DNA of 64,000 nucleotides, from NCBI GenBank assembly GCA_000433355.1, contig FR893142.1, positions 4,772-68,771 of the forward strand, given 5' to 3'. This document shows, in pieces, positions 7,453 to 61,373 of the stretch. Origin of the DNA: Alistipes sp. CAG:435 (GTDB lineage Bacteria > Bacteroidota > Bacteroidia > Bacteroidales > UBA932). The notes below the pieces were generated by a model. It did not search any database. It saw nothing but the letters and a program-made list of their open reading frames with translations, and was not told where the DNA came from. The first letter of the stretch is position 1, and each line of letters begins with the position of its first letter. Position numbers and translations under genes: made by a program.

Positions 7453-8487
7453 ATGAAAGACATCACAGTTTTAGACAGACTGACGGGTGGTTCATCCCGC
7501 GTCACCATCGTCGTCCACACCCATCCGGACGGGGATGCGGTCGGAAGCGGAACCGCCATGTTGGGTTATCTGACAGACATAAAGCGCAAGAACGCCGCGC
7601 TGATCGTACCGGACAGCGTCCCGGACTCCATCTCCTTCATCACGAAAGGATTCGAGCCCGGAAGTGTCATCGTGTTCGAGGATGAGAGGCTGAAAGCGGA
7701 GGAATGGATCAATTCCTGTGACCTGATCATCTGTCTGGACTGCAATTCATTCTCCAGGACAGCGGACATGGAGACTCTCCTGAGGAAATCCACGGCCCGT
7801 AAGGTTCTGATCGACCATCATCTGAACCCTGAGACAGCATCCTTTGACCTGACGTTCTCAAAGGAAGGGATATCCTCGGCCAGCGAGCTTCTGTTCTGGA
7901 TCCTGATGGAGACGCCGGAGATCGAAGGAGACGCGTCTCGTCTGCCGGCAAGATGCGCCGCCTCCCTGCTTACCGGAATGACGACTGACACGAACAACTT
8001 CTCGAACTCTGTCTTTCCAAGCACGTTCGAGATGGCCTCAAGACTGATCGAAGCCGGAGTGGACCGTGACGCCATACTCGTCAGCCTGTACAACAACTAC
8101 AGGGAGAACCGCCTGAGGCTCATGGGGTTCCTTATGAGCGAAAAGCTCACGATCACCCCGCGCGGCGTCGCTTTCATCATCCTGGACAAGGAGACCCAGG
8201 ACAGGTTTGACTTCAAAAGAGGCGAAAGCGAAGGCTTCGTGAACATGCCGTTGTCTGTGGCGGAGGTGCGCATGAGCATATTCCTGACCCAGGAGGACGA
8301 CATATTCAAAGTGTCCATCCGCTCAAAGAAGGGAGTCTCGGCGAATGACTGCGCCGCAAGATACTTCAACGGCGGCGGACATGAGCAGGCGGCCGGAGGA
8401 AAGCTCACCGCCGGGAAAGACCTGGCCTCCCTCAAGGACGCCGAGGCATACATCTTGAAAGTAACGAATGAGTTTTTTGGAATATGA
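7453..8487 (+). CDS. nrnA: DHH-family phosphoesterase (NrnA-like oligoribonuclease / pAp phosphatase)
   Basis: DHH motif HTHPDGDAVGSG and a DHHA1-type C-terminus ending GGGHEQAAGG. The start was moved from 7414 to the MKDIT ATG at 7453. Confidence 0.7.
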   Translation: MKDITVLDRLTGGSSRVTIVVHTHPDGDAVGSGTAMLGYLTDIKRKNAALIVPDSVPDSISFITKGFEPGSVIVFEDERLKAEEWINSCDLIICLDCNSFSRTADMETLLRKSTARKVLIDHHLNPETASFDLTFSKEGISSASELLFWILMETPEIEGDASRLPARCAASLLTGMTTDTNNFSNSVFPSTFEMASRLIEAGVDRDAILVSLYNNYRENRLRLMGFLMSEKLTITPRGVAFIILDKETQDRFDFKRGESEGFVNMPLSVAEVRMSIFLTQEDDIFKVSIRSKKGVSANDCAARYFNGGGHEQAAGGKLTAGKDLASLKDAEAYILKVTNEFFGI

Positions 8488-9032
8488 CAAAGAATCTCAT
8501 CATACCAGCCCTGATGGGCATGGCCGCTCTTGTCTCTTCTTGCGGCAAGAGCGAGGTCGAGAACGCCTATACCCAGCAGGACAAGAACATCGAATCTCTG
8601 GTCAAATCCCTTGCTCCGGAAGAATCCGAGGCGACGGTCGATTATCTTGACGGCGTCGTAAGGGTCACCGTGAAGCACGGAGAAGGGGCCGCGCTTGAGA
8701 GCGGCGGAACCGTGTCCTTCTACTATGCGGGACACTGCATCAACAGTTCCAGCCTCAGTTCCGGGAATATGTTCGTGACCAACAGCAAAGAATTCGCCGA
8801 ATCCTACAACTGGACGGTGACCGACTCCACCATCTTTCAGGTCAGCACGGTCGATCTCGCGAAGGACAACCTTGTCAAAGGCCTGAAAAAAGGCATCGTA
8901 GGGGTCAAGGCCGGAGATGAATGTTACATCATGTTCAACGGAAAGTACGGATTCGGGAAGCACACGAACGGAACCGTGCCAGGAAATTCGGCTTTGGCCT
9001 ATCATTTGTGGATAAGCAGCGTCTCGAATTAA
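8484..9032 (+). CDS. FKBP-type peptidyl-prolyl isomerase lipoprotein
   Basis: Lipobox LVSSC. FKBP-like core (GTVSFYYAGH, ECYIMFNGKYGFG). Its start overlaps the nrnA stop by 4 nt. Confidence 0.6.
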   Translation: MTKNLIIPALMGMAALVSSCGKSEVENAYTQQDKNIESLVKSLAPEESEATVDYLDGVVRVTVKHGEGAALESGGTVSFYYAGHCINSSSLSSGNMFVTNSKEFAESYNWTVTDSTIFQVSTVDLAKDNLVKGLKKGIVGVKAGDECYIMFNGKYGFGKHTNGTVPGNSALAYHLWISSVSN

Positions 9033-9035
9033 TCA

Positions 9036-10115
9036 ATGAGAAAAAAGGAAACTGTTATGAATATATCAAAGAAAGCAACTTCATCTTTGCGTTGTACGGC
9101 CGCCGTGGCCATTCTTGCCTTGGCGTCATCCTGCGCGAAGGAAACCACAACCTACGAGAACGATGACGTGAAACTCTACCTGGACGCTTGGATGAGCGTG
9201 AACCATCCGGGAGTCCAGCCGACCGGCCTTGGAGTTTACATCATCGATGACCAGCCTGGCTCCGGAGAGGCTGTCACGGATGATGACTATTATTACTTCA
9301 TCCGCTACACGGCCACGGATCTGAACGGAAACATCAGCGGCACGTCCGAAGAGAAAGTGGCGCAGCAGACAGGAAGCTACACGAAAGGCAACTACTATGG
9401 TCCGACAGTGGTGATGGACTCTTACTATGCCACCCAGCCGGGTGTTCTGGAAGCCATCAAGGGCATGAAGGTCGGCGGAACAAGGACAGTGGTCGTGCCT
9501 GGATGGCTCAACTCAACCATATCATCATCAACCGGCGAGAAATACTACACTACCGCTGAGGAATTCTACAAGAACAAGAGCGGGAGCAACACAATCTACA
9601 CTCTTACCTTGACCGACAAGACCGACAACATCAACAAATGGGAGGTCGATTCGTTGGAAAGGTACACAGCTCGCATGATGAACGATGTTGACTCCACATT
9701 CTACGGGTACTACTACCAACAGCTCAAGGAGCCTACTGACACAACCACATTCCCGCGTGACACGACATTCTACATCAACTACATAGGGAGGCTTCTCAAC
9801 GGTCAGGTGTTCGACACCACAATCGAGGACACCGCCAAGTTCTACGGAATTTACTCCTCGTCAAAGACTTACAAGCCTCAAATGGTCAAGTTGAACGAGA
9901 CCTACACCGAAATCACTCTCGGAGGGTCAAGCAGTTCGGACGGAAGCACCACAATCGATGGATTCGCCTACTGCCTCTCAAAACTGAAATCCTACGAGAA
10001 AGGAATCTGCGCGTTCTACTCGGCTTTGGGCTACAAATACAGCGGCAGCGGAAACGTGATTCCAAAATTTGCCCCTTTGACTTTCGAGATCGAGATTGTT
10101 GACAAAGAAGAATAA
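9036..10115 (+). CDS. FKBP-type PPIase lipoprotein with two FKBP-like domains
   Basis: Lipobox LASSC. Repeated FKBP-like segments (GVYIIDDQPGSG ... GTRTVVVPGW and YINYIGRLLNGQVFDTT ... FEIEIV). An alternative start lies at 9057. Confidence 0.55.
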   Translation: MRKKETVMNISKKATSSLRCTAAVAILALASSCAKETTTYENDDVKLYLDAWMSVNHPGVQPTGLGVYIIDDQPGSGEAVTDDDYYYFIRYTATDLNGNISGTSEEKVAQQTGSYTKGNYYGPTVVMDSYYATQPGVLEAIKGMKVGGTRTVVVPGWLNSTISSSTGEKYYTTAEEFYKNKSGSNTIYTLTLTDKTDNINKWEVDSLERYTARMMNDVDSTFYGYYYQQLKEPTDTTTFPRDTTFYINYIGRLLNGQVFDTTIEDTAKFYGIYSSSKTYKPQMVKLNETYTEITLGGSSSSDGSTTIDGFAYCLSKLKSYEKGICAFYSALGYKYSGSGNVIPKFAPLTFEIEIVDKEE

Positions 10116-10126
10116 GGAAGAATATA

Positions 10127-11524
10127 ATGCCACAGACACAGACCGCTCCTACGGAGCTTGGAAGTGAAAGCATAGGAATATTGCTCAAGAAGTACGCAGT
10201 CCCTGGAATCATCGCCATGACTGCGTCTTCTCTCTATAATATGGTGGACAGCATCTACATCGGGCATATTCCCGGATCGGGATCGCTGGCCATCTCGGGA
10301 CTTGCTGTCACGTTCCCGCTGATGAACCTCAGCACGGCGCTCGGCACTCTTGTCGGCGTCGGGGCGGCGACCATGATCTCCGTGCTGCTCGGACAGCGGA
10401 ACTACAAGATCGCCAACAAGGTTCTGGCCAACGAGGTGACCCTGAACTGCATCGTCGGCCTCCTGTTCACCGTGTTCTGCCTGATGTTCCTGGATCCGAT
10501 TCTCTATTTCTTCGGAGCCAGCGCCAACACGCTGAAGTACGCCAGGGACTATATGGAGATCATTCTCTACGGGAATGTCATCACTCATCTTTACTTTGGA
10601 CTGAACAGCATCATCCGGTCTTCGGGCAACCCGAAGATGGCAATGGGACTGACCCTTTTCACAGTGATCCTCAACAGCATCCTGGACCCGATATTCATTT
10701 TCACGTTCGGAATGGGTGTCCGCGGAGCCGCCTTGGCGACGGTGATTTGCCAGGCTGTCTCGCTGGCATATTCAATATACTATTTCACACGGAAGGACAA
10801 CGTCCTTCGTCTGCCGAAAGGGTTCTTCAGTCTTGAGTGGAGGATCGCAAAGGATTCATTGTCAATCGGTATGGGGCCTTTCCTTATGAACTCGGCCTCC
10901 TGCATCGTGACAATGTTCATCAACCAGCAGCTTCTCAAGTACGGCGGAGACCTTGCGATCGGAGCATACGGAATCATCAACAGGATCAACTTCCTGTTCA
11001 TCATGGTGGTGATGGGGTTCAACCAGGGAATGCAGCCTATCGCCGGCTACAATTTCGGGGCGAGGAAATATTCAAGGGTCCGCGAGGTATTCCTGCGCAC
11101 GTCAATGTGGGCCACGATCATAACCGGTTTCTGGTTCATCGCCTCGGAGTTCTTCCCGAAAGTGATGGTCAGCATCTTCACCAACGATCCAAGCCTTAAG
11201 GAGATGGCGGAGAAAGGATTGAGAGTGATGAACCCGGTTGTGCTGATCGTAGGCTGGCAGATGGTATCGACCAACCTGTTCCAGAGTCTCGGAATGGTCC
11301 GGAAGTCAATATTCCTGTCCCTCAGCCGCCAACTGCTTTACCTTGTGCCACTGCTGTACCTGATGCCGCTGTTCTTTGACATTCATGGAGTGTTCGCGGC
11401 GTTCCCTATCTCCGATGCGCTGGCCTGCGTCACGACATTGGTCATGATCGGCAATCTCATGCGCAAATTCAGCAGACTCAAGGACGGGGACGAGCCAACG
11501 ATCCTTGGAAGCGCGATCTCTTAA
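10127..11524 (+). CDS. MATE-family efflux transporter
   Basis: 465 aa with 12 predicted TM segments and the typical MATE N-terminus (LKKYAVPGIIAMTASSLYNMVDSIYIGH). Confidence 0.8.
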   Translation: MPQTQTAPTELGSESIGILLKKYAVPGIIAMTASSLYNMVDSIYIGHIPGSGSLAISGLAVTFPLMNLSTALGTLVGVGAATMISVLLGQRNYKIANKVLANEVTLNCIVGLLFTVFCLMFLDPILYFFGASANTLKYARDYMEIILYGNVITHLYFGLNSIIRSSGNPKMAMGLTLFTVILNSILDPIFIFTFGMGVRGAALATVICQAVSLAYSIYYFTRKDNVLRLPKGFFSLEWRIAKDSLSIGMGPFLMNSASCIVTMFINQQLLKYGGDLAIGAYGIINRINFLFIMVVMGFNQGMQPIAGYNFGARKYSRVREVFLRTSMWATIITGFWFIASEFFPKVMVSIFTNDPSLKEMAEKGLRVMNPVVLIVGWQMVSTNLFQSLGMVRKSIFLSLSRQLLYLVPLLYLMPLFFDIHGVFAAFPISDALACVTTLVMIGNLMRKFSRLKDGDEPTILGSAIS

Positions 11525-11530
11525 AAACTA

Positions 11531-12148
11531 ATGAATATGAACGGACAAAACACAATAATCAACATCGGACGCCAGTTCGGGAGCGGCGGAAAGCTCATCG
11601 CGTTAAAAATAAGCGAGACTCTGGGCGTCCCGGTCTATGACAACGAGTTGATCTCCAAGGCAGCCGACGAGAGCGGTTTCAGCAAGGAACTGTTCGAGCG
11701 CAGCGACGAGAAAAGAAGCATATTCAACATCTCATCATTCTTCGGGACCGGAAGGTTCGGCGGCGCGCAAAACTACGTCGGTGACAATGAGCTTTTCAAA
11801 ATCCAGAGCGAGGTCATCAGGAACATCGCGGCGAAAGGTCCGGCGATTTTCGTAGGCAGGTGCTCCAACTACATCCTCAGGGACTCTAAATGCCTGGATG
11901 TCTTCGTCTGCGCGCCTTTGGAGGACCGTGTGAAAAGGGTCTCCGAAAGATTGGGAATCAGCCCGGAGGAGGCCCGCACCAGAATCGGAAGACAGGACAG
12001 GACCAGGGAGACCTACTACAATTTCTTCACTTTCGGCAACTGGGGAGCGGCGTCTGACTATGACCTCTGCATCGACTCCTCGATTCTCGGAATAGACGGG
12101 ACAGCCGATTTCATCATCGACTTCGGAAGAAAGGCCGGACTGATCTAA
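11531..12148 (+). CDS. Cytidylate-kinase-like family P-loop protein
   Basis: IINIGRQFGSGG N-terminal P-loop, 205 aa. Confidence 0.55.
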   Translation: MNMNGQNTIINIGRQFGSGGKLIALKISETLGVPVYDNELISKAADESGFSKELFERSDEKRSIFNISSFFGTGRFGGAQNYVGDNELFKIQSEVIRNIAAKGPAIFVGRCSNYILRDSKCLDVFVCAPLEDRVKRVSERLGISPEEARTRIGRQDRTRETYYNFFTFGNWGAASDYDLCIDSSILGIDGTADFIIDFGRKAGLI

Positions 12149-12152
12149 GAAT

Positions 12153-13493
12153 ATGTCGGATTCCAGAACAAAAAGGTTGATCCTCACTTGCGCGGCGGGA
12201 CTGTCTGTCCTGCTGGTCGTCATCATAGCCGGTAAGTCAGCGTTCGGCAAGCGGATGGATAAGGAAACTGAATCGTGTCCTGTGCCGGTAAACCTCAACG
12301 AAACCCTTACAAACGAGATGTCAGACACGTCCTGCCTGGCCGGGTTCGATAAGATAGTCAAGGACTACCTGACTTACTGGGGAATACACGGAGCGTCCCT
12401 CTCGGTCATGAGAAACGACTCCCTGCTCTTCGCCAAAGGCTACGGGGAGGCCGACACCGACAAGAAAATGGGGCCCGGGAATATTCTGAGGATGGCGTCC
12501 GTCTCCAAGCTGGTGACAGCTGTGGGAATTATGGTTCTTCAGGAAAGAGGACTGCTGAGCATCAAGGACCACGTGTTCGGGCCGGATGGAATCCTGAACG
12601 ACTCAGCCTATGTCGCCGCCATAAAAGACACCTTATACAATAGGATTACGGTTGAAGACCTTCTGCGTCACAAGGGTGGTTTCTCCAAACGTGGCGGAGA
12701 CCCGATGTTCTCGACCCGCTGGATAATGATGCAGAACGGCTGGAAGGAGGTTCCCACACAGGAGCAACTGATGGAGCTCCAGCTCAAAAGGCGGGTGAGA
12801 TTCATTCCTGGCACCGCTCAGGAATATTCAAACTTCGGCTATCTGGCTCTTTCCATGGTGATTGAGAAGGTCAGCGGGATGGACTATGAGACCTTTATGC
12901 AGGAAAATGTGCTGCGGCCAATCGGATGCGTTGATTTCCATATCGCCGGCAACTACTACAAGCACAAGCTCCCCAACGAGACACGCTACTATGTCCAACA
13001 CGATGACGAGCCGGCGGAGGAGTTCAACAACAGCGGCCGTAAGGTCATCCGCTGCTACGGCGGCAACAATGTGACTGGTCTTTCCGGAGCGGGAGCCTGG
13101 GCGGCATCGACACCGGAACTGGCACTGCTCGTAGCCTCGATCGACGGCAGACCGGAAGTGCCTGACATCATCAGCAAGGAAAGCGTGGATCAGATGACTG
13201 AATATTTCGACGAGAGCACCTACTCGCTCGGTTGGAACGACACCAAGGACGGTTACTGGACACGTACCGGGACATTCGCCGGGACAAGCGCGCTGATCAA
13301 GTACTTCCCTGACGGGGAATGCTGGATATTCATTTCCAACACAAGCACTTACAAAGGGCCGGGGCTCGCGCGGCACACGGCGGAGCTTTTCGACAAGCTC
13401 AGAATGAAATATTCCTCGAAGTTTCCTCCGAGGAATATGTTCTATCCGCCTCATCAAAATACTTCAAGTGATGAGGAATGGTTTGATTATTAA
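12153..13493 (+). CDS. Serine hydrolase of the beta-lactamase/transpeptidase superfamily
   Basis: SxxK motif SVSK near the N-terminus and an N-terminal TM anchor. 446 aa. Confidence 0.6.
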   Translation: MSDSRTKRLILTCAAGLSVLLVVIIAGKSAFGKRMDKETESCPVPVNLNETLTNEMSDTSCLAGFDKIVKDYLTYWGIHGASLSVMRNDSLLFAKGYGEADTDKKMGPGNILRMASVSKLVTAVGIMVLQERGLLSIKDHVFGPDGILNDSAYVAAIKDTLYNRITVEDLLRHKGGFSKRGGDPMFSTRWIMMQNGWKEVPTQEQLMELQLKRRVRFIPGTAQEYSNFGYLALSMVIEKVSGMDYETFMQENVLRPIGCVDFHIAGNYYKHKLPNETRYYVQHDDEPAEEFNNSGRKVIRCYGGNNVTGLSGAGAWAASTPELALLVASIDGRPEVPDIISKESVDQMTEYFDESTYSLGWNDTKDGYWTRTGTFAGTSALIKYFPDGECWIFISNTSTYKGPGLARHTAELFDKLRMKYSSKFPPRNMFYPPHQNTSSDEEWFDY

Positions 13494-54109: not shown

Positions 54110-54880
54110 ATGCGCTACCGGATCACCCTTTCTTATGACGGCTCGTCATTCTGCGGCTGGCAGATTCAGAACGATACAATGACCGTTCAGGAGTGTCTTC
54201 AGAATGCTCTTTCGACCCTCTTGAAGGAGGACATTGCCGTCACAGGCGCCGGACGGACCGATTCGAAGGTGAACGCCATCAACTACGTGGCCCACTTCGA
54301 GGCCTCGGATCCGGGCATTGACGCAAGCGCGGTTGGCTACAAAATAAATGCCATTTTACCCGCCGGAATCAAGGTACATTCGATCGCGCTTTGCGATCCA
54401 GAGTTCCACGCCAGATTCGACGCCACACAGCGTGAGTACAAGTACTTTATCCACCGCCGCCGGGACCCGTTTATGCGGGAATATTCCTACCTCTACACAT
54501 TCCCTTTGGACGTTGAGAAGATGAACCGCGCCGCCCAGGCACTTCTCGGTAGACACGACTTCAGCTGCTTCGAGAAAGTCGGCAGCGGCAACAAGACATC
54601 CATCTGCACCGTCACCCAGGCCAGTTGGGAGACATATTCCCCCGACCACGTCAGAATGATGGGCTACCCCGCCGAGGAAGGCGACTACCTCGTCTTCACC
54701 ATCCGCGCCGACCGTTTTCTCAGGAATATGGTCCGCGCCGTGGTCGGCTCCCTCCTTGAGGTAGGCCGCGGCAAGCGCGATGAGTCCTGGATCGCCACCC
54801 TCACCCAAGGCGGATCCCGCTCCTCCGCCGGCGAATCCGTCCCCGGCAACGCCCTCTTCCTCACCAAGGTGGAATATTGA
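54110..54880 (+). CDS. truA: tRNA pseudouridine(38-40) synthase
   Basis: N-terminus MRYRITLSYDGSSFCGWQIQ and catalytic GAGRTD. The last 14 codons are duplicated at 57200-57240. Confidence 0.85.
   Translation: MRYRITLSYDGSSFCGWQIQNDTMTVQECLQNALSTLLKEDIAVTGAGRTDSKVNAINYVAHFEASDPGIDASAVGYKINAILPAGIKVHSIALCDPEFHARFDATQREYKYFIHRRRDPFMREYSYLYTFPLDVEKMNRAAQALLGRHDFSCFEKVGSGNKTSICTVTQASWETYSPDHVRMMGYPAEEGDYLVFTIRADRFLRNMVRAVVGSLLEVGRGKRDESWIATLTQGGSRSSAGESVPGNALFLTKVEY
54827..54867. repeat. Direct repeat DR1 (41 nt) inside the truA 3' end
   Basis: gccggcgaatccgtccccggcaacgccctcttcctcaccaa matches 57200-57240 at 40 of 41 positions. Confidence 0.75.
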
Positions 54881-54885
54881 CGAGT

Positions 54886-55650
54886 CTATCGAAGCTCCTT
54901 AAATTCCAGAATATCCAGCATCGAGAACAGGATTCCGTTTATCGAAGAATTCCAACTCTGGTGGAAGTGTCCGTAGTACCAATGATTAACCGGTTGATGA
55001 TTAATGGTCAGGAAGTCATATATCAGATCCATTATTTTCCTCTCCTTCGAGCAATCTTCCAACAAGGTCGGATCAGCCTGTGCCCACCCGGACAGTCCAG
55101 CCTTGTCTATGAGTTCACAGAATGAAGGCGCCGTATGAGTCACAACAGTATCAATCAGCATGCTCTGAGTGATGACAGCCAGACGCTCCAAATCAAGACG
55201 CGGGGCTTCACTCTTCCAATATGTCGCGGTCAGGGAAGGATGTAAGCGTGAGTCTTCCGCGATCCTTGCGGAGCGATCCACGCTGACAGCACCTCCAACG
55301 CACAGTATGTTATGGCCACAAACCTCTATCACGCCATAATCCGGGATAGTTCTAAATCTTTTATGGCGGACTCTCTGTTCGTTGAAATACGACGGATCAT
55401 CGTGGTTGCCACGCACCATAGCGATGTAGTTGTTCGCCTTTGACAACTTAGGTGAGATCCGACTGAAAACCTGTTCATAGTAGGCAGGTTTCTCAAAACC
55501 GAAGCCACAATCCCCAGCCACTATCAAAAGCGTGTCACTCATACCATAACGCACACACAACCGGAACGCCAATTCTCTGAATTCTCCGTGTACGTCCCCG
55601 CAGATCACAACGGATTTCACATCGGGATAAGCAAATACATTATCCATCAT
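54886..55650 (-). CDS. Calcineurin-like metallophosphoesterase (lambda-phosphatase / ApaH-like)
   Basis: Motifs GDVHG, AGDCGFG, GNHDD and GHFH. Its ATG overlaps the nucleotidyltransferase stop as ATGA. Confidence 0.65.
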   Translation of the reverse strand: MMDNVFAYPDVKSVVICGDVHGEFRELAFRLCVRYGMSDTLLIVAGDCGFGFEKPAYYEQVFSRISPKLSKANNYIAMVRGNHDDPSYFNEQRVRHKRFRTIPDYGVIEVCGHNILCVGGAVSVDRSARIAEDSRLHPSLTATYWKSEAPRLDLERLAVITQSMLIDTVVTHTAPSFCELIDKAGLSGWAQADPTLLEDCSKERKIMDLIYDFLTINHQPVNHWYYGHFHQSWNSSINGILFSMLDILEFKELR

Positions 55651-56495
55651 CGTCTTAAGATTTGCGACATCCGCGCCAAAGCACGACGGATTGAATCGTA
55701 TGTGCCTATAACCGCATTATCCAGAAGGTCATTCACCAATGGACTATTCTCTTGCTGTGCAACCTCATTGTCCAACATATCCGCATAATACACCTTGTGA
55801 TCTTCCGAGAGTATATTCAATAAATCCGAGGCGATCCACTCCGCGCCGGCTACTGTCTGGTCAAAGGTTGAAACATCCAGACTTATTGTCCCGGGAATGG
55901 AATCGCTGGACAAGGCCAAGGTAATGTATGCGTTTTCCAATATGAACTGCATATCCGCGGCATCCTTACGAGTCATCAGACGCCGGTCACACCAAGCATC
56001 CAGTTTAATCAGCCATTGCCCACTTAGCGAAGCCATTCTAAAATCGAACCGATCCTCGACAGACACCTCGTCCGCATTCTTCATCACATCCGCAAAACAC
56101 CGTACAGACATCACGGGATTGCCTTCCGGCGGCCAAGCGACCATTTCTTCCTGTGCGATATCACCAAACGGAACTATGTCCACCTCATAACGGACATTCT
56201 CAATCCCACAATAGTAAAATCTCTGTTTCTCAGGAGCTTTGACAAAGCCGTCTTTTATAAGGATCTCGGTCAAGCGTTCATATTCATCCCATTTCTCCAA
56301 AAGCACAGCCACATCCAAATCCATTGTGCGCCTTGGAGCGCTCCCTGCTCCCAACAATTTTAGACTAAGGTCACGCGCCGCCGCACCGACAACATAAACC
56401 TCGGCACCGATTTCTTTGTAAGCTTTCGCCAACGCCTCCAGAACACTCGCCAGAAGGCCATTGCCAAGTTCTTCTCTCTTTAATGTATAGGTCAT
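55647..56495 (-). CDS. Pol-beta-superfamily nucleotidyltransferase, AbiEii-like (DUF1814/COG2253-type)
   Basis: Motifs VVGAAARD (hG[GS/A]), MDLDVAV ([DE]h[DE]h), EVDIV (h[DE]h) and a C-terminal KLDAWCDR that fits KLxAhxxR. First ATG at 56495. The track uses a TTG at 56501 that overlaps the upstream stop. Confidence 0.55.
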   Translation of the reverse strand: MTYTLKREELGNGLLASVLEALAKAYKEIGAEVYVVGAAARDLSLKLLGAGSAPRRTMDLDVAVLLEKWDEYERLTEILIKDGFVKAPEKQRFYYCGIENVRYEVDIVPFGDIAQEEMVAWPPEGNPVMSVRCFADVMKNADEVSVEDRFDFRMASLSGQWLIKLDAWCDRRLMTRKDAADMQFILENAYITLALSSDSIPGTISLDVSTFDQTVAGAEWIASDLLNILSEDHKVYYADMLDNEVAQQENSPLVNDLLDNAVIGTYDSIRRALARMSQILRR

Positions 56496-56497
56496 AT

Positions 56498-57073
56498 TCA
56501 AATCAAAGCTTTAATCCTGCCCGCCGCCTCAGTACATCTGTCATCACCAGTTGAGAGAAGATCTGCATAAACAACTATTATAGGGAAATCCTCTCCCGTC
56601 CAGAATTTACGGTAAACATAGATTTCACCTTCCGGATCCGGAATCATTCGACCGGTAGCAATGAGACAGTCGGCTGATTCTTCGACATATACATCCCATT
56701 TTTGAGGGCGAAGATACCCATCTCTAAGAAATGCTGCCGGTTCTCCTCCCCACCGGGCTTGCGATGGGAGCAGGATATCCGCCCAATGCTCCCTCACAGA
56801 CTCCGCCAGAAACCGGAACCGGCATATCAGCTGTTTCTTTTTCCTGCCTTCGGAATAGTCTCTGGCCCATCTGTCTATCAAGAACATGCGTTTCCGCAGA
56901 ATACGTCCCGCAGATGTCTCAACCACAAAACCCCGCTCAGCCAAATCCGACATCACCCCCTGCACGGATCCAAGCGACAATCCGGTCTCCTTAGCCATTT
57001 GTCTGTATGTCTTGCTGATGTTTGTCTTGTCCTGCAACAGAAACAACACCAATCTCATTTCTGACTTCTGCAT
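56498..57073 (-). CDS. Winged-HTH protein with an approximately 130-aa C-terminal domain (AbiEi-like antitoxin/regulator candidate)
   Basis: N-terminal wHTH (ISKTYRQMAKETGLSLGSVQGVMSDLAERGFV). 191 aa. First gene of the three-gene operon. Confidence 0.5.
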   Translation of the reverse strand: MQKSEMRLVLFLLQDKTNISKTYRQMAKETGLSLGSVQGVMSDLAERGFVVETSAGRILRKRMFLIDRWARDYSEGRKKKQLICRFRFLAESVREHWADILLPSQARWGGEPAAFLRDGYLRPQKWDVYVEESADCLIATGRMIPDPEGEIYVYRKFWTGEDFPIIVVYADLLSTGDDRCTEAAGRIKALI

Positions 57074-57095
57074 CGTTGTTATAATTTTTAACAGT

Positions 57096-57112
57096 GTTCA
57101 AAAATTTTGAAC
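57096..57112. promoter_or_regulatory. Perfect palindromic operator-like site GTTCAAAA-A-TTTTGAAC in the islet-operon leader
   Basis: An 8-bp inverted repeat 23-39 nt upstream of the wHTH start codon. A further TTTTTGAAC half-site lies at 57122-57130. A minus-strand TATTTTTG (-7-like) box lies at 57140-57147 with TTTG 18 nt further upstream. Confidence 0.5.
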
Positions 57113-57199
57113 ATTACTATATTTTTGAACACAACTCCGCAAAAATATAACATTATCAATATATTTCCAAATATTTTAACAGCCGCAACCAACATGTAA

Positions 57200-57240
57200 G
57201 CCGGCGAATCCGTCCCCGGCCACGCCCTCTTCCTCACCAA
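57200..57240. repeat. Direct repeat DR2 (41 nt), a copy of the truA 3' end
   Basis: gccggcgaatccgtccccggccacgccctcttcctcaccaa. Confidence 0.75.
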
Positions 57241-57768
57241 TATAGTTCCCTAAGTAAATATTAAGTCTCTACATAGTTTCTTTTGCAATTGTCAGGAACA
57301 TTCATGTCTGCCTGATGGCCCTGCAGCCAGCATGTCCGTTCCTCATGTCGGTTTTCCACATTGCGTTGGGAACGTCGAACCGCATTGCAGGTGTCTGCAA
57401 GGTAAAGGACTGTTCCCGCTAATTGCAGCGTCAGAAATAGCCCTCAATGAATTTCATGGCTCTCAACCACATGAATGTGATCGACAAAGCCACATACCCT
57501 TGTCTTGACCTTCATATTGGAACGACAATCTGTTGTTTATCAGAGAAATGAATTTCCTGGTGCGCGCCGATTTCGCACATAGGAGGGAGCGACGCCCGAA
57601 GAACGCTTTGTAATGACTGTTCCGGCTTCCTGGTGTGCCAAAACCTTCACAAACCTAAAGGTGGAATATTAATGAGCGAGGTCTCAAAAAAAATGCGTAC
57701 CTTTGTGGTTCCGTGGCGTGAAATGTGCAGTTGCACGCCGGAAATGTTTGTAAATAATAAAAACATAC

Positions 57769-58530
57769 GTGATAATTATGTTGTTCCAAGTTTTGCAGGC
57801 CGTGGGCCTGGATTCTGCGGCGGCCGAGATGGCCGAGGATATGGCACAGGGGGCCGCGCCTGTGGCGGATCTTGCTCCACAGCAGGTTGAGCAGTCGTTC
57901 TCACTCATCGAGATGGCGACCAAGGGTGGCTGGCTGATGATCGTGCTGGCAATTCTGTCGGTGATCGCCATCTACATATTCGGAAAGAAATGGTGGATGA
58001 TCCACAAGGCGGGACAGGTTGACAAGAACTTCATGCGCGACATCCGCGACTATATTCATGAAGGGAAGGTGAAGTCGGCTGTCTCGCTCTGCCAGAAATA
58101 TGACTCTCCGGTGGCGCGTCTCGTGGAGAAGGGAATCGAGCGCATCGGAAGACCTCTCGCTGACATTCAGACATCTGTCGAGAACATGGGCAACGTCGAG
58201 ATCGCGAGGCTTGAGAAGGGGCTCCCTATGCTCGCCACCATCGCCGGTGGAGCGCCGATGATCGGATTCCTCGGAACCGTGCTCGGTATGGTGCAGGCCT
58301 TCTTCAATATGGCGAACGCGGGCAACAACATCGACATCACACTGCTTTCGAGCGGTATCTACACGGCGATGATCACCACGGTGGGCGGTCTTATCGTCGG
58401 CATCCTCGCCTACTTCGGCTACAACTATCTGGTCGCTCAGATTTCCAATCTGATGTTTATGATGGAGAACGCGACGATTGACTTTATGGATCTTCTGCAC
58501 GAACCTGCAGGCAACGAGGAGGAGAAGTAG
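57769..58530 (+). CDS. exbB: MotA/TolQ/ExbB-family proton channel
   Basis: Three-TM topology and the conserved C-terminal TM block (TTVGGLIVGILAYFGYNYL). The track start is GTG; the likely ATG is at 57778. Confidence 0.75.
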   Translation: MIIMLFQVLQAVGLDSAAAEMAEDMAQGAAPVADLAPQQVEQSFSLIEMATKGGWLMIVLAILSVIAIYIFGKKWWMIHKAGQVDKNFMRDIRDYIHEGKVKSAVSLCQKYDSPVARLVEKGIERIGRPLADIQTSVENMGNVEIARLEKGLPMLATIAGGAPMIGFLGTVLGMVQAFFNMANAGNNIDITLLSSGIYTAMITTVGGLIVGILAYFGYNYLVAQISNLMFMMENATIDFMDLLHEPAGNEEEK

Positions 58531-59765: not shown

Positions 59766-61373
59766 ATGGAAGAAAATTTGAATGGTGGTCAAGAGAACCA
59801 CGAGGAGCGTAGGGATTACGCTGCAGAAGGACCAAAAACAGGTTATTCATCTGAGGGCAGGAAACTCAGGCCAAGAAAGAAGGTAGTGCCTGCCGCTTCA
59901 TCCTCCGCTGACGGAGAGTACAAGTCTTACGACAATCACAGGAGTTACTCCAGCGACAATCGTGGTGGCTACGGTCAGCGCGGTGGTTACCAGAGCCGTG
60001 GAGGCAACAGCAGAGGAGGATATTCATCAGACCGCAGAAGCGGCTATGGAGACCGCAGCGGTGGCTATGGCCAGCGCAGAAGCTACGGTGACAACGCCGA
60101 AGGCGGAGAGAGAAGATCTTCATCTTACGGACAGAGCCGTCCTTCTTACGGGGACAGTCCGTCTTACGGACAGAGAAGAAGCTATGGCAGCAACAACTAC
60201 GATGGAGGCGAGAGGAGATCATCCTACGGTCGCCCTTCATTCGGCGAGGGTCGTCCTTCCTACGGGGACAGGCCGTCTTACGGACAGAGAAGAAGCTATG
60301 GCAACAACTCCGAGGGAGAGGAGAGAAGATCGTCATACGGACAGAGCCGTCCTTCATTCGGCGAGGGCCGTCCATCCTATGGACAGAGAAGAAGTTACGG
60401 CGGCAGCCAGGAAGGCGGCGAGAGAAGGCCGTCATATTCAAGAAAACCGGCCGGCGGCCACGGATTCGGCCCTAAGCAGGGAGGTTTCTCAGCCGGCAGA
60501 GGCGCCGGACATCAGGGACCTAAGAAGTTCGGCCGCAAGGACGAGCCGCATTTCACCGAGGCTGACGAAGCCGGAATCAACCAGATGCTTTCAAGGAAGC
60601 CACAGATTGACGCGGCGTTTTCCGACAACGACAACGTTCCTACACCTATCAAGGAAGAGATACGTCTGAACAAGTACATCGCCAATTCCGGAGTGTGCTC
60701 ACGCCGCGAGGCTGACAACTTCATTCAGGCCGGCGTCGTGACCGTAAACGGCGAGGTTGTGACCGAGCTTGGGACAAAGGTCAACGTCCTCAAGGACGAC
60801 ATCCGTTTCAACGGAGAGAGACTCAAGGGCGAGGAGAAAGTTTACATCGTGATGAACAAGCCGAAAGGCTTCGTCACCAGTGCGAGCGACCCTCACGCCG
60901 AGAAGACCGTCATGGATCTGCTCAAGGGCTGCAAGCTCCGCGTGTTCCCTGTCGGAAGGCTTGACAAGAACACCACTGGTGTGCTGATGTTCACCAACGA
61001 CGGTGAGATCGCCGAGCAGCTCACACACCCTTCCTACAACAAGAAGAAGATCTACCAGGTCATCCTCGACAAGCCGCTTGAGGAGGCCGACAAGGAGAAG
61101 ATCCTCACAGAGGGTCTCGACCTCAACGACGGCAACATCAAAGCCGACGAGCTTGAATATATCGACGCTGAGGACCACAGACGTCTCGGCATCGAGATCC
61201 ACTCCGGCAAGAACAGGATCGTCAGAAGGATCTTCGAATCCCTCGGCTACGACGTGAAGGCTCTTGACAGGGTTTACTTCGCGGGTCTCACCAAGAAGGG
61301 CCTCAAGAAGGGCGAGTGGAGATACCTCAGCGAGGGCGAGGTCAATGTCCTCAAGATGGGGGCCTATGTCTAG
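59766..61373 (+). CDS. rluB: RluB/RsuA-family pseudouridine synthase with a roughly 270-aa N-terminal RG/SYG-rich repetitive tail
   Basis: C-terminal S4 domain (IRLNKYIANSGVCSRREAD) and a PseudoU_synth_2 catalytic domain (FPVGRLDKNTTGVLMFTNDG). The N-terminus has tandem approximately 35-aa repeats ERRSSYGQSRPSFGEGRPSYGQRRSYG. Confidence 0.75.
   Translation: MEENLNGGQENHEERRDYAAEGPKTGYSSEGRKLRPRKKVVPAASSSADGEYKSYDNHRSYSSDNRGGYGQRGGYQSRGGNSRGGYSSDRRSGYGDRSGGYGQRRSYGDNAEGGERRSSSYGQSRPSYGDSPSYGQRRSYGSNNYDGGERRSSYGRPSFGEGRPSYGDRPSYGQRRSYGNNSEGEERRSSYGQSRPSFGEGRPSYGQRRSYGGSQEGGERRPSYSRKPAGGHGFGPKQGGFSAGRGAGHQGPKKFGRKDEPHFTEADEAGINQMLSRKPQIDAAFSDNDNVPTPIKEEIRLNKYIANSGVCSRREADNFIQAGVVTVNGEVVTELGTKVNVLKDDIRFNGERLKGEEKVYIVMNKPKGFVTSASDPHAEKTVMDLLKGCKLRVFPVGRLDKNTTGVLMFTNDGEIAEQLTHPSYNKKKIYQVILDKPLEEADKEKILTEGLDLNDGNIKADELEYIDAEDHRRLGIEIHSGKNRIVRRIFESLGYDVKALDRVYFAGLTKKGLKKGEWRYLSEGEVNVLKMGAYV

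Follow-up and report, generated by a model that had tools for sequence, protein, structure and literature searches.

A stretch of 64,000 nucleotides from contig FR893142.1 of Alistipes sp. CAG:435 (assembly GCA_000433355.1), hereafter referred to as the window, contains an islet of 2.3 kb located between truA, which encodes tRNA pseudouridine synthase A (54110..54880, plus strand; PF01416, E 3.7e-35), and exbB, the native right-hand neighbour of truA (57769..58530, plus strand; PF01618, E 2.6e-28). The islet is bounded by direct repeats, between which there are exactly three minus-strand genes. Their predicted products are, in the order of transcription, an AbiEi_2-type antitoxin (gene 1), a divergent nucleotidyltransferase (NTase) of the AbiEii/MenT type (gene 2) and a calcineurin-like metallophosphoesterase (MPE; gene 3). 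A preliminary reading of the window from its sequence alone (the first-pass annotation) had described this arrangement, with the nearest gene 5 nt from the end of truA, and it was reproduced here: the stop codons of truA and of gene 3 are at 54880 and 54886, respectively, 5 nt apart. The junctions between the genes are also as described there, namely TGA-AT-ATG at 56500-56493 between genes 1 and 2, and an ATGA overlap at 55650-55647 between genes 2 and 3. The G+C content of the islet is 47%, compared with 58% for truA and 55% for exbB.

Gene 1 (56498..57073, minus strand) encodes a protein of 191 aa that is predicted to be an AbiEi_2-type antitoxin and probably an autorepressor. Its residues 61-188 match PF09952 (AbiEi_2; E 2.2e-23, score 83.6 against a cutoff of 21), and residues 4-58 gave weak matches to the winged-helix families HTH_24, MarR and TrmB. 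The earlier assignment of gene 1 to the AbiEi antitoxins is thus upheld, but the family is PF09952 and not PF13338 as had been suggested.

The 126-bp region upstream of gene 1 (57074..57199, minus strand) is AT-rich (25% GC) and, on inspection of its sequence, appears to be the control region of the operon. It contains a candidate promoter of the Bacteroidetes type, composed of TTTG at 57171-57168 and, after 20 nt, TATTTTTG at 57147-57140. Between this candidate promoter and the start codon there are three GTTCAAAA half-sites, two of which form the perfect palindrome GTTCAAAA-T-TTTTGAAC at 57112-57096, the third being a direct GTTCAAAA copy at 57130-57123. Neither the half-sites nor the two promoter boxes vary across six lineages. 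By analogy with known AbiE systems, the GTTCAAAA half-sites are likely to be the AbiEi operator.

Gene 2 (55647..56495, minus strand) is a putative toxin gene encoding a divergent, DUF1814-like NTase, assigned on the basis of a family profile and of Foldseek structural matches. Its start is most likely the ATG at 56495, which gives 282 aa as in the homologues, and not the TTG at 56501; the length of 284 aa reported earlier needs to be corrected accordingly, although the residue numbering used here (T59 etc.) follows the 284-aa open reading frame (ORF). The family of this NTase is large (2350 representatives at 50% clustering), and PF08843 (AbiEii) is matched by 87 out of 100 diverse relatives (23-43% identity). 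A search of the Protein Data Bank (PDB) with a 16-sequence profile of the NTase returned nothing usable; a 100-sequence profile matched MenT1 (8an4) with an E value of 4e-5, and aligned the segment T59-M-D61-L-D63 of the window protein with T39-R-D41 of MenT1. The AlphaFold2 (AF2) model of the NTase (predicted local distance difference test score, pLDDT, 81) gave MenT1, MenAT1, JHP933 and MenT3 as the top Foldseek matches. All the motifs expected for an NTase are present (VVGAAARD, DLDVAV, EVDIVPFG and KLDAWCDR), the last one being the KLxAhxxR motif IV that had already been recognized in the first-pass annotation. In the 100 NTase sequences G39, D61, D108, K166 and D183 are invariant, and position 59 is occupied by Thr in 97 and by Ser in 3 of them. 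T59, next to the first catalytic Asp, is a putative phospho-acceptor. The earlier suggestion that gene 2 is AbiEii-like is thus upheld, its relation to PF08843 being supported by the relatives and the modelled fold only.

Gene 3 (54886..55650, minus strand) encodes a calcineurin-like metallophosphoesterase of 254 aa, designated MPE1, which matches PF00149 (E 1.5e-8; 35.8 bits against a cutoff of 21.5) and phrog_1649 (E 4e-20). Its metal-binding motifs GDxHG, GD, GNHD, H and GHxH are intact, and residues D19, H21, D47, N82, H83, H172, H228 and H230 are invariant in the MPE1 alignment. The nearest folds to its AF2 model (pLDDT 88.8) are those of Dbr1, aq_1956 and Rv0805. The first-pass annotation had described gene 3 as a lambda-phosphatase or ApaH-like enzyme. 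This label was rejected: the fold ranking places the protein closest to the Dbr1/Rv0805 type, and the GDxHG-GDxxDRG-GNHE signature of the PPP family is not present.

Direct repeats at the 3' end of truA

A repeat search of the window showed that 40 of the 41 bases at 54827-54867 recur at 57200-57240, as previously reported. The expected number of such repeat pairs arising by chance in 6 kb was estimated to be about 1e-15. The duplication is, however, longer than had been claimed, and its second copy is split: a further 17 of 19 bases are shared between 54866-54884 and 57658-57676, so that the duplicated unit is about 58 bp and comprises the last 17 codons of truA, the stop codon and 4 nt. The copy joined to truA (attL-like; 54827..54884, plus strand) supplies these last 17 codons, and the islet sequence begins directly after it. 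The copy on the exbB side (attR-like) consists of a 5' part with the native 3' end of truA in its His variant (57200..57240, plus strand), identical to the corresponding sequence in the empty loci L126 and L137 described below, and of a 3' part (57658..57676, plus strand; …AAGGTGGAATATTAA TGAG), which runs into the native upstream region of exbB.

The search for an empty truA-exbB junction, which had been proposed as a check of the insertion, was carried out by scanning metagenome contigs with TruA, and 80 loci were returned (loci are designated here by L followed by a number). In the relatives with 67-80% TruA identity, exbB comes directly after truA, and the two genes are 58-149 bp apart in nearly all of these relatives. 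Empty junctions were also found in closer sister species, namely in L126, L137 and L138 (gap 101 bp) and in L127 (gap 263 bp). Each empty site has one 58-bp copy, which is identical to the exbB-side copy of the window, with the His codon CAC followed by TGAGCGAGGTCTC. The truA gene of the window now ends with ...PGNALFLTKVEY (Asn variant), that of the empty-site relatives with ...PGHALFLTKVEY. Because the exbB-side copy is identical to the single copy of the empty sites, it must be regarded as the native truA end, and the copy now joined to truA, with the Asn codon followed by islet sequence, arrived with the insert. The occupied locus L125 aligns with the empty locus L126 on both flanks, with 51 bp of L126 being used twice.

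The presence of empty truA-exbB junctions with one repeat copy in sister species, as well as in all the more distant relatives, together with the lower G+C content of the islet, bears out the earlier proposal of a site-specific type of insertion into the 3' end of truA. The islet is an insertion, probably acquired horizontally, that brought its own copy of the gene end. It should be noted that the flanks of the empty contigs (L126, L127 and L137) are 83-94% identical to those of the occupied L125 at the nucleotide level, which means that they come from sister species and not from strains, and that gain and precise loss are not distinguishable in this comparison; a presence/absence polymorphism within one species was looked for and was not found among these contigs. 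The synonymous divergence (dS) of the islet genes between occupied species is mostly 0.27-0.56, and up to 0.87 with respect to L015, similar to the values of 0.38-0.40 for truA and exbB; the islet has therefore been inherited vertically for some time.

In agreement with the first-pass annotation, no recombinase was found between the repeats, either in the window, where all three genes of the islet are assigned, or in L013-L017, five occupied species having been searched. The islet no longer carries, or never carried, a recombinase. In several respects it resembles integrase-less att-flanked islets (cis-mobilisable), as well as integrative elements with a gene 3' end as their target: there is a direct repeat derived from the target 3' end, the gene end is reconstituted, empty sites have one copy, and several different elements are found at the same site. 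It differs from them in that no recombinase is present inside the repeats in the five occupied species and no excision product was observed, and in that the module has gained other cargo on both of its flanks.

A phosphoesterase gene linked to the nucleotidyltransferase

The distribution of the three genes was studied by an alignment scan with the NTase, taking one genome per species, which gave 80 loci, nearly all from metagenome-assembled genomes of Bacteroidales, with NTase identities of 39-93%. An AbiEi_2 gene precedes the NTase gene in every one of them except L051, whose contig begins 171 bp before the NTase gene. The slot after the NTase gene is occupied by a PP2C phosphatase in 27 loci (200-230 aa; PF13672/PF00481), by a second metallophosphoesterase, MPE2, in 22 (255-263 aa), and by MPE1 in 6; 22 loci have no third gene, and in 3 there is too little sequence after the NTase gene. 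MPE2 resembles MPE1 at the level of the superfamily only (BLASTP E 0.001). A phosphoesterase is therefore present in 55 of the 77 informative species-level loci. The 4-nt ATGA overlap with the NTase stop codon is found in all the intact MPE loci and in about half of the PP2C loci, the others having longer overlaps. In addition, an NTase gene followed by a PP2C gene was found in all 11 IMG/VR contigs that contain a relative of the NTase, and the order AbiEi_2-NTase-PP2C was also found in two representatives at 30-33% identity.

In a neighbour-joining tree of the NTases the PP2C forms are deep, and both MPE forms lie in derived sister clades, in which the AbiEi protein is shorter (about 190-220 aa vs about 330 aa). 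The phosphoesterase gene has been deleted or degraded in at least eight lineages in which the AbiEi and NTase genes are intact. L001-L006 and L017 have a 458-bp internal deletion in the phosphoesterase gene, and remnants or truncated forms are present in L025, L028, L039, L046, L053, L076 and L077. The ratio of nonsynonymous to synonymous divergence (dN/dS) in the clade of the window is 0.09-0.20 for all three genes, indicating purifying selection. The phosphoesterase gene is linked to this NTase clade and has been replaced by genes for non-homologous phosphatases. The association of the third gene with the pair noted in the first-pass annotation is thus real, but the MPE family itself is not specific to the NTase, and the slot is elsewhere filled by MPE2 or PP2C.

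Outside the clade, the closest homologues of MPE1 come after classical PF08843 AbiEii genes (P0277 and P0316); other homologues stand alone. In P0316 the PF08843 and PF00149 domains are in one ORF, and this was considered as a possible Rosetta-stone fusion. The candidate was rejected, in that it comes from a single contig, contains only the C-terminal third of the NTase and is probably a degraded gene. Predicted phages, the Prevotella Lak megaphages among them, commonly carry homologues of MPE1 (23-58% identical) as stand-alone genes. The MPE of the module and the phage copies share a common ancestry.

Two further observations concern the module in other genomes. In L007-L012 (1-4700) the three-gene module with MPE2 adjoins an EcoRII restriction-modification system, a Vsr endonuclease and an Mrr-like enzyme, and this neighbourhood has the gene content of a typical defence island. 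In L102 (5780-6535) the NTase and AbiEi are 99% identical to those of the window and the MPE only 89%, which suggests that recombination may have occurred within the module.

A possible phospho-switch and its alternatives

In the mycobacterial MenAT systems, the antitoxins MenA1 and MenA3 induce auto-phosphorylation of the toxins MenT1 (at T39) and MenT3 (at S78), which abolishes the NTase activity (PMC11375011). AbiEi likewise induces the auto-phosphorylation of AbiEii, and the housekeeping PP2C SaSTP dephosphorylates AbiEii and restores its activity in vitro; the role of phosphatases in toxin re-activation in vivo was called unexplored by the same authors (bioRxiv 10.64898/2026.01.19.700257).

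By analogy, the islet could work as follows. The AbiEi_2 winged-helix protein would repress the operon at the GTTCAAAA repeats and neutralise the toxin, and the NTase would add nucleotides to tRNA acceptor ends, thereby blocking translation. The antitoxin would switch the NTase off by inducing auto-phosphorylation of T59, as is the case for MenT1, MenT3 and AbiEii. The translationally coupled MPE would be a dedicated phosphatase, which would strip the phosphate from T59 and re-arm the toxin, or set the threshold for its activation, for example during phage infection. Two arguments lead to this reading. The slot is filled interchangeably by PP2C and by two MPE families beside an NTase with a conserved acceptor Thr, which points to a dedicated phosphatase acting on the phosphorylated toxin. 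Moreover, the phosphatase has been lost several times in lineages that kept an intact toxin, a pattern more in keeping with an activator than with an essential neutraliser. We therefore regard a three-part phospho-switch with a dedicated re-activating phosphatase as the best mechanistic reading of the islet operon, and would put the chances that it is right at about even; the first-pass annotation had made no connection with toxin auto-phosphorylation. It is in this sense that we infer the toxicity of the NTase, the phosphorylation of T59, the substrate of the MPE and the role of the islet in defence. It is more tentative to generalize that kinase-less three-component phospho-switches make up a large sub-branch of the AbiEi_2/AbiEii family, in which the antitoxin would cause the toxin to phosphorylate itself and a phosphatase of the operon would re-arm it. 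That phosphatase would have been recruited at least three times from unrelated families (PP2C, the Dbr1/Icc-like MPE that phages also have, and MPE2). We consider this generalization somewhat more likely to fail than to hold.

With the AbiE systems of Streptococcus agalactiae and Lactococcus (type IV toxin-antitoxin systems, recently proposed to be type VII) the islet shares the order of the genes, with the antitoxin first, the combination of a winged helix-turn-helix and an AbiEi-type C-terminal domain in the antitoxin, a DUF1814-like NTase in which all four motifs are found, KLxAhxxR among them, together with a hydroxyl residue two positions before the first catalytic Asp, and the presence of repeats in the promoter region. 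It differs in the antitoxin domain, which is PF09952 (AbiEi_2) instead of PF13338/COG5340, in an NTase that is too divergent for a direct PF08843 match, and in the third, translationally coupled phosphoesterase gene; in S. agalactiae, the only phosphatase tested was the housekeeping PP2C SaSTP, and only in vitro. The MenAT1 and MenAT3 (TglT/TakA) systems of Mycobacterium tuberculosis provide the nearest solved structures (MenT1, 8an4/8an5; MenT3, 6y5u) and share with the islet the position of the phospho-acceptor (T39 of MenT1 corresponding to T59 of the window) and the expected activity, i.e. nucleotidylation of the tRNA acceptor end. Unlike the islet, they consist of two genes, their antitoxins are unrelated (MenA1) or of the COG5340 type (MenA3), and dephosphorylation has been attributed solely to the chromosomal PstP, acting non-specifically and in vitro. 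A looser parallel, as a concept only, is offered by PP2C partner-switching of the SpoIIE/RsbU type, where a dedicated phosphatase reverses an inhibitory Ser/Thr phosphorylation and so releases an activity. The islet, however, has neither a kinase nor an anti-sigma partner, and the phosphoprotein would be the self-phosphorylating NTase.

The closest catalogued system is PDC-M21, an experimentally untested PADLOC candidate. In the source preprint (Payne et al. 2024) it is the three-family cassette FAM_01665>>FAM_00091>>FAM_01402 with 166 RefSeq occurrences; the core of two genes, with 713 occurrences, was left aside there. It shares the three-gene composition, with a small NTase as component B and a PP2C as component C. 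The PDC-M21C model matches the PP2C of the sister clades (E 1.7e-8), and PDC-M21B matches the NTases weakly (5.6e-6 to 3e-4). When the window was compared with the PDC-M21 models, only B was matched, and weakly (E 5.6e-6), A and C remaining unmatched. The AbiEi and MPE of the window match no PADLOC model, the MPE variants are uncatalogued, and no mechanism has been proposed for PDC-M21. Since two of its proteins are unmatched and the match of the NTase is marginal, the locus would not be called by PADLOC. In the literature on AbiE, AbiEii, DUF1814 and MenT we found no description of a system with an operon-encoded phosphatase, and 'PDC-M21' appeared in no main text. The first-pass claim of an undescribed variant must therefore be restricted: the cassette of NTase and PP2C is already listed, without a mechanism, as PDC-M21, and it is the MPE variants that appear to be new.

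Several points weigh against the phospho-switch. The NTase of the window, searched alone, matches no Pfam family (PF08843 not even at E 0.1), no NCBIfam model and no PDB sequence. About a quarter of the informative loci (22 of 77) have two genes only, and three representatives at 25-28% identity are two-gene pairs of AbiEi_2 and AbiEii (PF08843) genes, with no phosphatase. The MPE1 family consists mainly of stand-alone phage genes: its members have no adjoining NTase gene in any of the 31 IMG/VR loci examined (L197-L227), nor in the Lak megaphages. In fold, MPE1 comes nearest to phosphodiesterases, one of which, Dbr1, is specific for RNA. To the best of our knowledge, the AbiEi_2-type antitoxins are a family with no experimental study, in which induction of phosphorylation has never been demonstrated. 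Finally, an off-switch and an on-switch that are co-expressed from one operon need an extra control step.

The fold of MPE1 leads to the chief alternative, even if we consider it rather unlikely: the MPE could be a phosphodiesterase acting on RNA or on nucleotides, which would undo or modulate the chemistry of the toxin, and the PP2C of the sister clades would have a different job. Such an enzyme could trim the nucleotides that the toxin has added at the 3' end of tRNA, as a repair enzyme or second antidote, or could degrade a nucleotide product or substrate. This would suit the closest folds, which include Dbr1 (an RNA 2'-5' phosphodiesterase), Rv0805 and Lmo2642 (cyclic-nucleotide phosphodiesterases) and GpdQ, and the name 'predicted phosphodiesterase' given to the relatives by JGI; the loss of the gene with the NTase and AbiEi intact would also fit a redundant antidote. 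However, fold neighbours within the MPE superfamily are poor predictors of the substrate, and it is a PP2C gene that occupies this slot in the sister clades, overlapping the NTase gene in the same manner. PP2C enzymes are phosphoprotein monoesterases, and the fact that, to our knowledge, none is known to cut phosphodiesters counts against a phosphodiesterase function common to all the occupants of the slot.

Somewhat less probable is that the phosphatase acts on phosphoproteins other than the NTase, as a second effector or as a sensor arm, by reversing the Ser/Thr phosphorylation introduced by a phage kinase or by the host, or as a component controlled by a phage trigger. The occurrence of three unrelated phosphoesterase families in one slot could indeed reflect a generic dephosphorylation, and MPE1 relatives are common in phages. 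Nevertheless, the gene is tightly coupled in translation to that of the NTase and is restricted to one NTase sub-clade of the AbiEi_2/AbiEii family, and the toxin itself is the only documented phospho-substrate in the AbiE/MenAT family.

It is improbable, in our opinion, that the MPE is a mere passenger (a phage-derived moron) and the islet an ordinary two-gene AbiE module. The stand-alone occurrence of MPE1 in all the viral loci, its loss in several lineages and the informative loci that have no third gene would be accounted for, but not the overlap with the NTase stop codon in nearly all the occupied loci, the frequency of a phosphoesterase in the species-level and viral NTase loci, its replacement always by other phosphatases, and the purifying selection. 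The last alternative, that gene 2 is not a toxin gene but encodes a resistance enzyme that modifies aminoglycosides or lincosamides, or else a signalling enzyme of the CD-NTase type, had been raised in the first-pass annotation and was rejected as very improbable: there are fold matches to ANT(2'')-Ia and LnuA (E 2.5e-3 to 1.2e-2) and, weakly, to CdnG, and a PDC component was labelled AAD(2'') by Payne et al., but MenT1 is first in the fold ranking, the relatives match PF08843, an AbiEi_2 antitoxin gene is the obligatory neighbour upstream in 91 of 92 loci, and there is no CBASS effector or Cap gene.

If the phospho-switch reading is correct, the islet would be a natural and compact system in which to address the reactivation of phosphorylated AbiEii/MenT toxins. 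The papers published between 2024 and 2026 left open how the stockpiled phospho-toxin is reactivated, and only housekeeping PP2Cs were tried, in vitro. An operon-encoded phosphatase that is swapped among non-homologous families is the strongest type of comparative evidence for a built-in dephosphorylation, and the small three-gene cassettes of gut Bacteroidales allow a direct test of this step. The stand-alone MPE homologues of phages could then mean that phages or their hosts manipulate the switch. In addition, the combination of AbiEi_2, NTase and either PP2C or MPE provides an annotation rule for loci that are currently missed by the tools for defence annotation.

Other insertions at the truA 3' end

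The exbB-side repeat of the window is split by an insertion of 417 bp (57241..57657), which lies outside the system and is absent from the relatives L001-L017. The second repeat copy is contiguous in five related species (L001-L006, L013, L014, L015/L016 and L017), and since the 417 bp are missing wherever it is contiguous, they represent a later, lineage-specific insertion. No homologue of the insert was found elsewhere in the window or among the loci retrieved, Rfam gave no match, and the insert has no repeat copies and no convincing ORF. Its last 20 nt or so (CCTTCACAAACCTAAAGGTGG) vaguely resemble the end of the repeat, and it might thus be what is left of another element with the same target site.

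The 3' end of truA is an integration and cargo hotspot in Bacteroidales of the human gut and rumen. In L013, the MPE gene and truA are separated by 5 kb of additional cargo (7611-12610), including an AAA_15/AAA_21 ATPase of 449 aa and a 203-aa partner, which may be another defence pair. In L014 (1013-3538) and L015 (143-4348), differing cargo is located between the second repeat and exbB, and encodes an MBL/RMMBL-fold protein, a DNA_pol3_finger protein and an Arm-DNA-bind_5+DUF1653 protein. Two small genes resembling those for outer membrane proteins or lipoproteins are common to L013 and L014, where they are on opposite sides of the module. A different element is found at the same truA 3' end in L111, L116 and L120 (5769 onward), which are loci of other gut Bacteroidales. 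This element has a variant truA end of its own. It encodes a serine recombinase of the resolvase type (PF00239, E 9e-29), which was found at the site in this element only, and a replication protein similar to Phage_CRI/G2P, and it could be a pointer to the kind of recombinase that uses the truA 3' site.

In L099, L101, L106 and similar loci, which belong to near-conspecific strains, truA is 98-99% identical to that of the window. Directly after the truA stop codon these loci have, on inspection by eye, genes for a sugar kinase and an aldolase-like protein and two ORFs resembling regulators, with no exbB within 5 kb; the Asn variant of the window and the first 3 nt after the stop codon are shared. 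The truA junction thus seems to have been rearranged or to have undergone one more replacement.

Farther downstream in the window, an ORF at 59766-61373 encodes a pseudouridine synthase, whose counterpart in L001-L006 carries S4 and PseudoU_synth_2 domains. The ORF has an N-terminal low-complexity region of about 270 aa with SYG, RRS and GGY repeats, and has been shortened, or split in two, by gene callers in some related assemblies.

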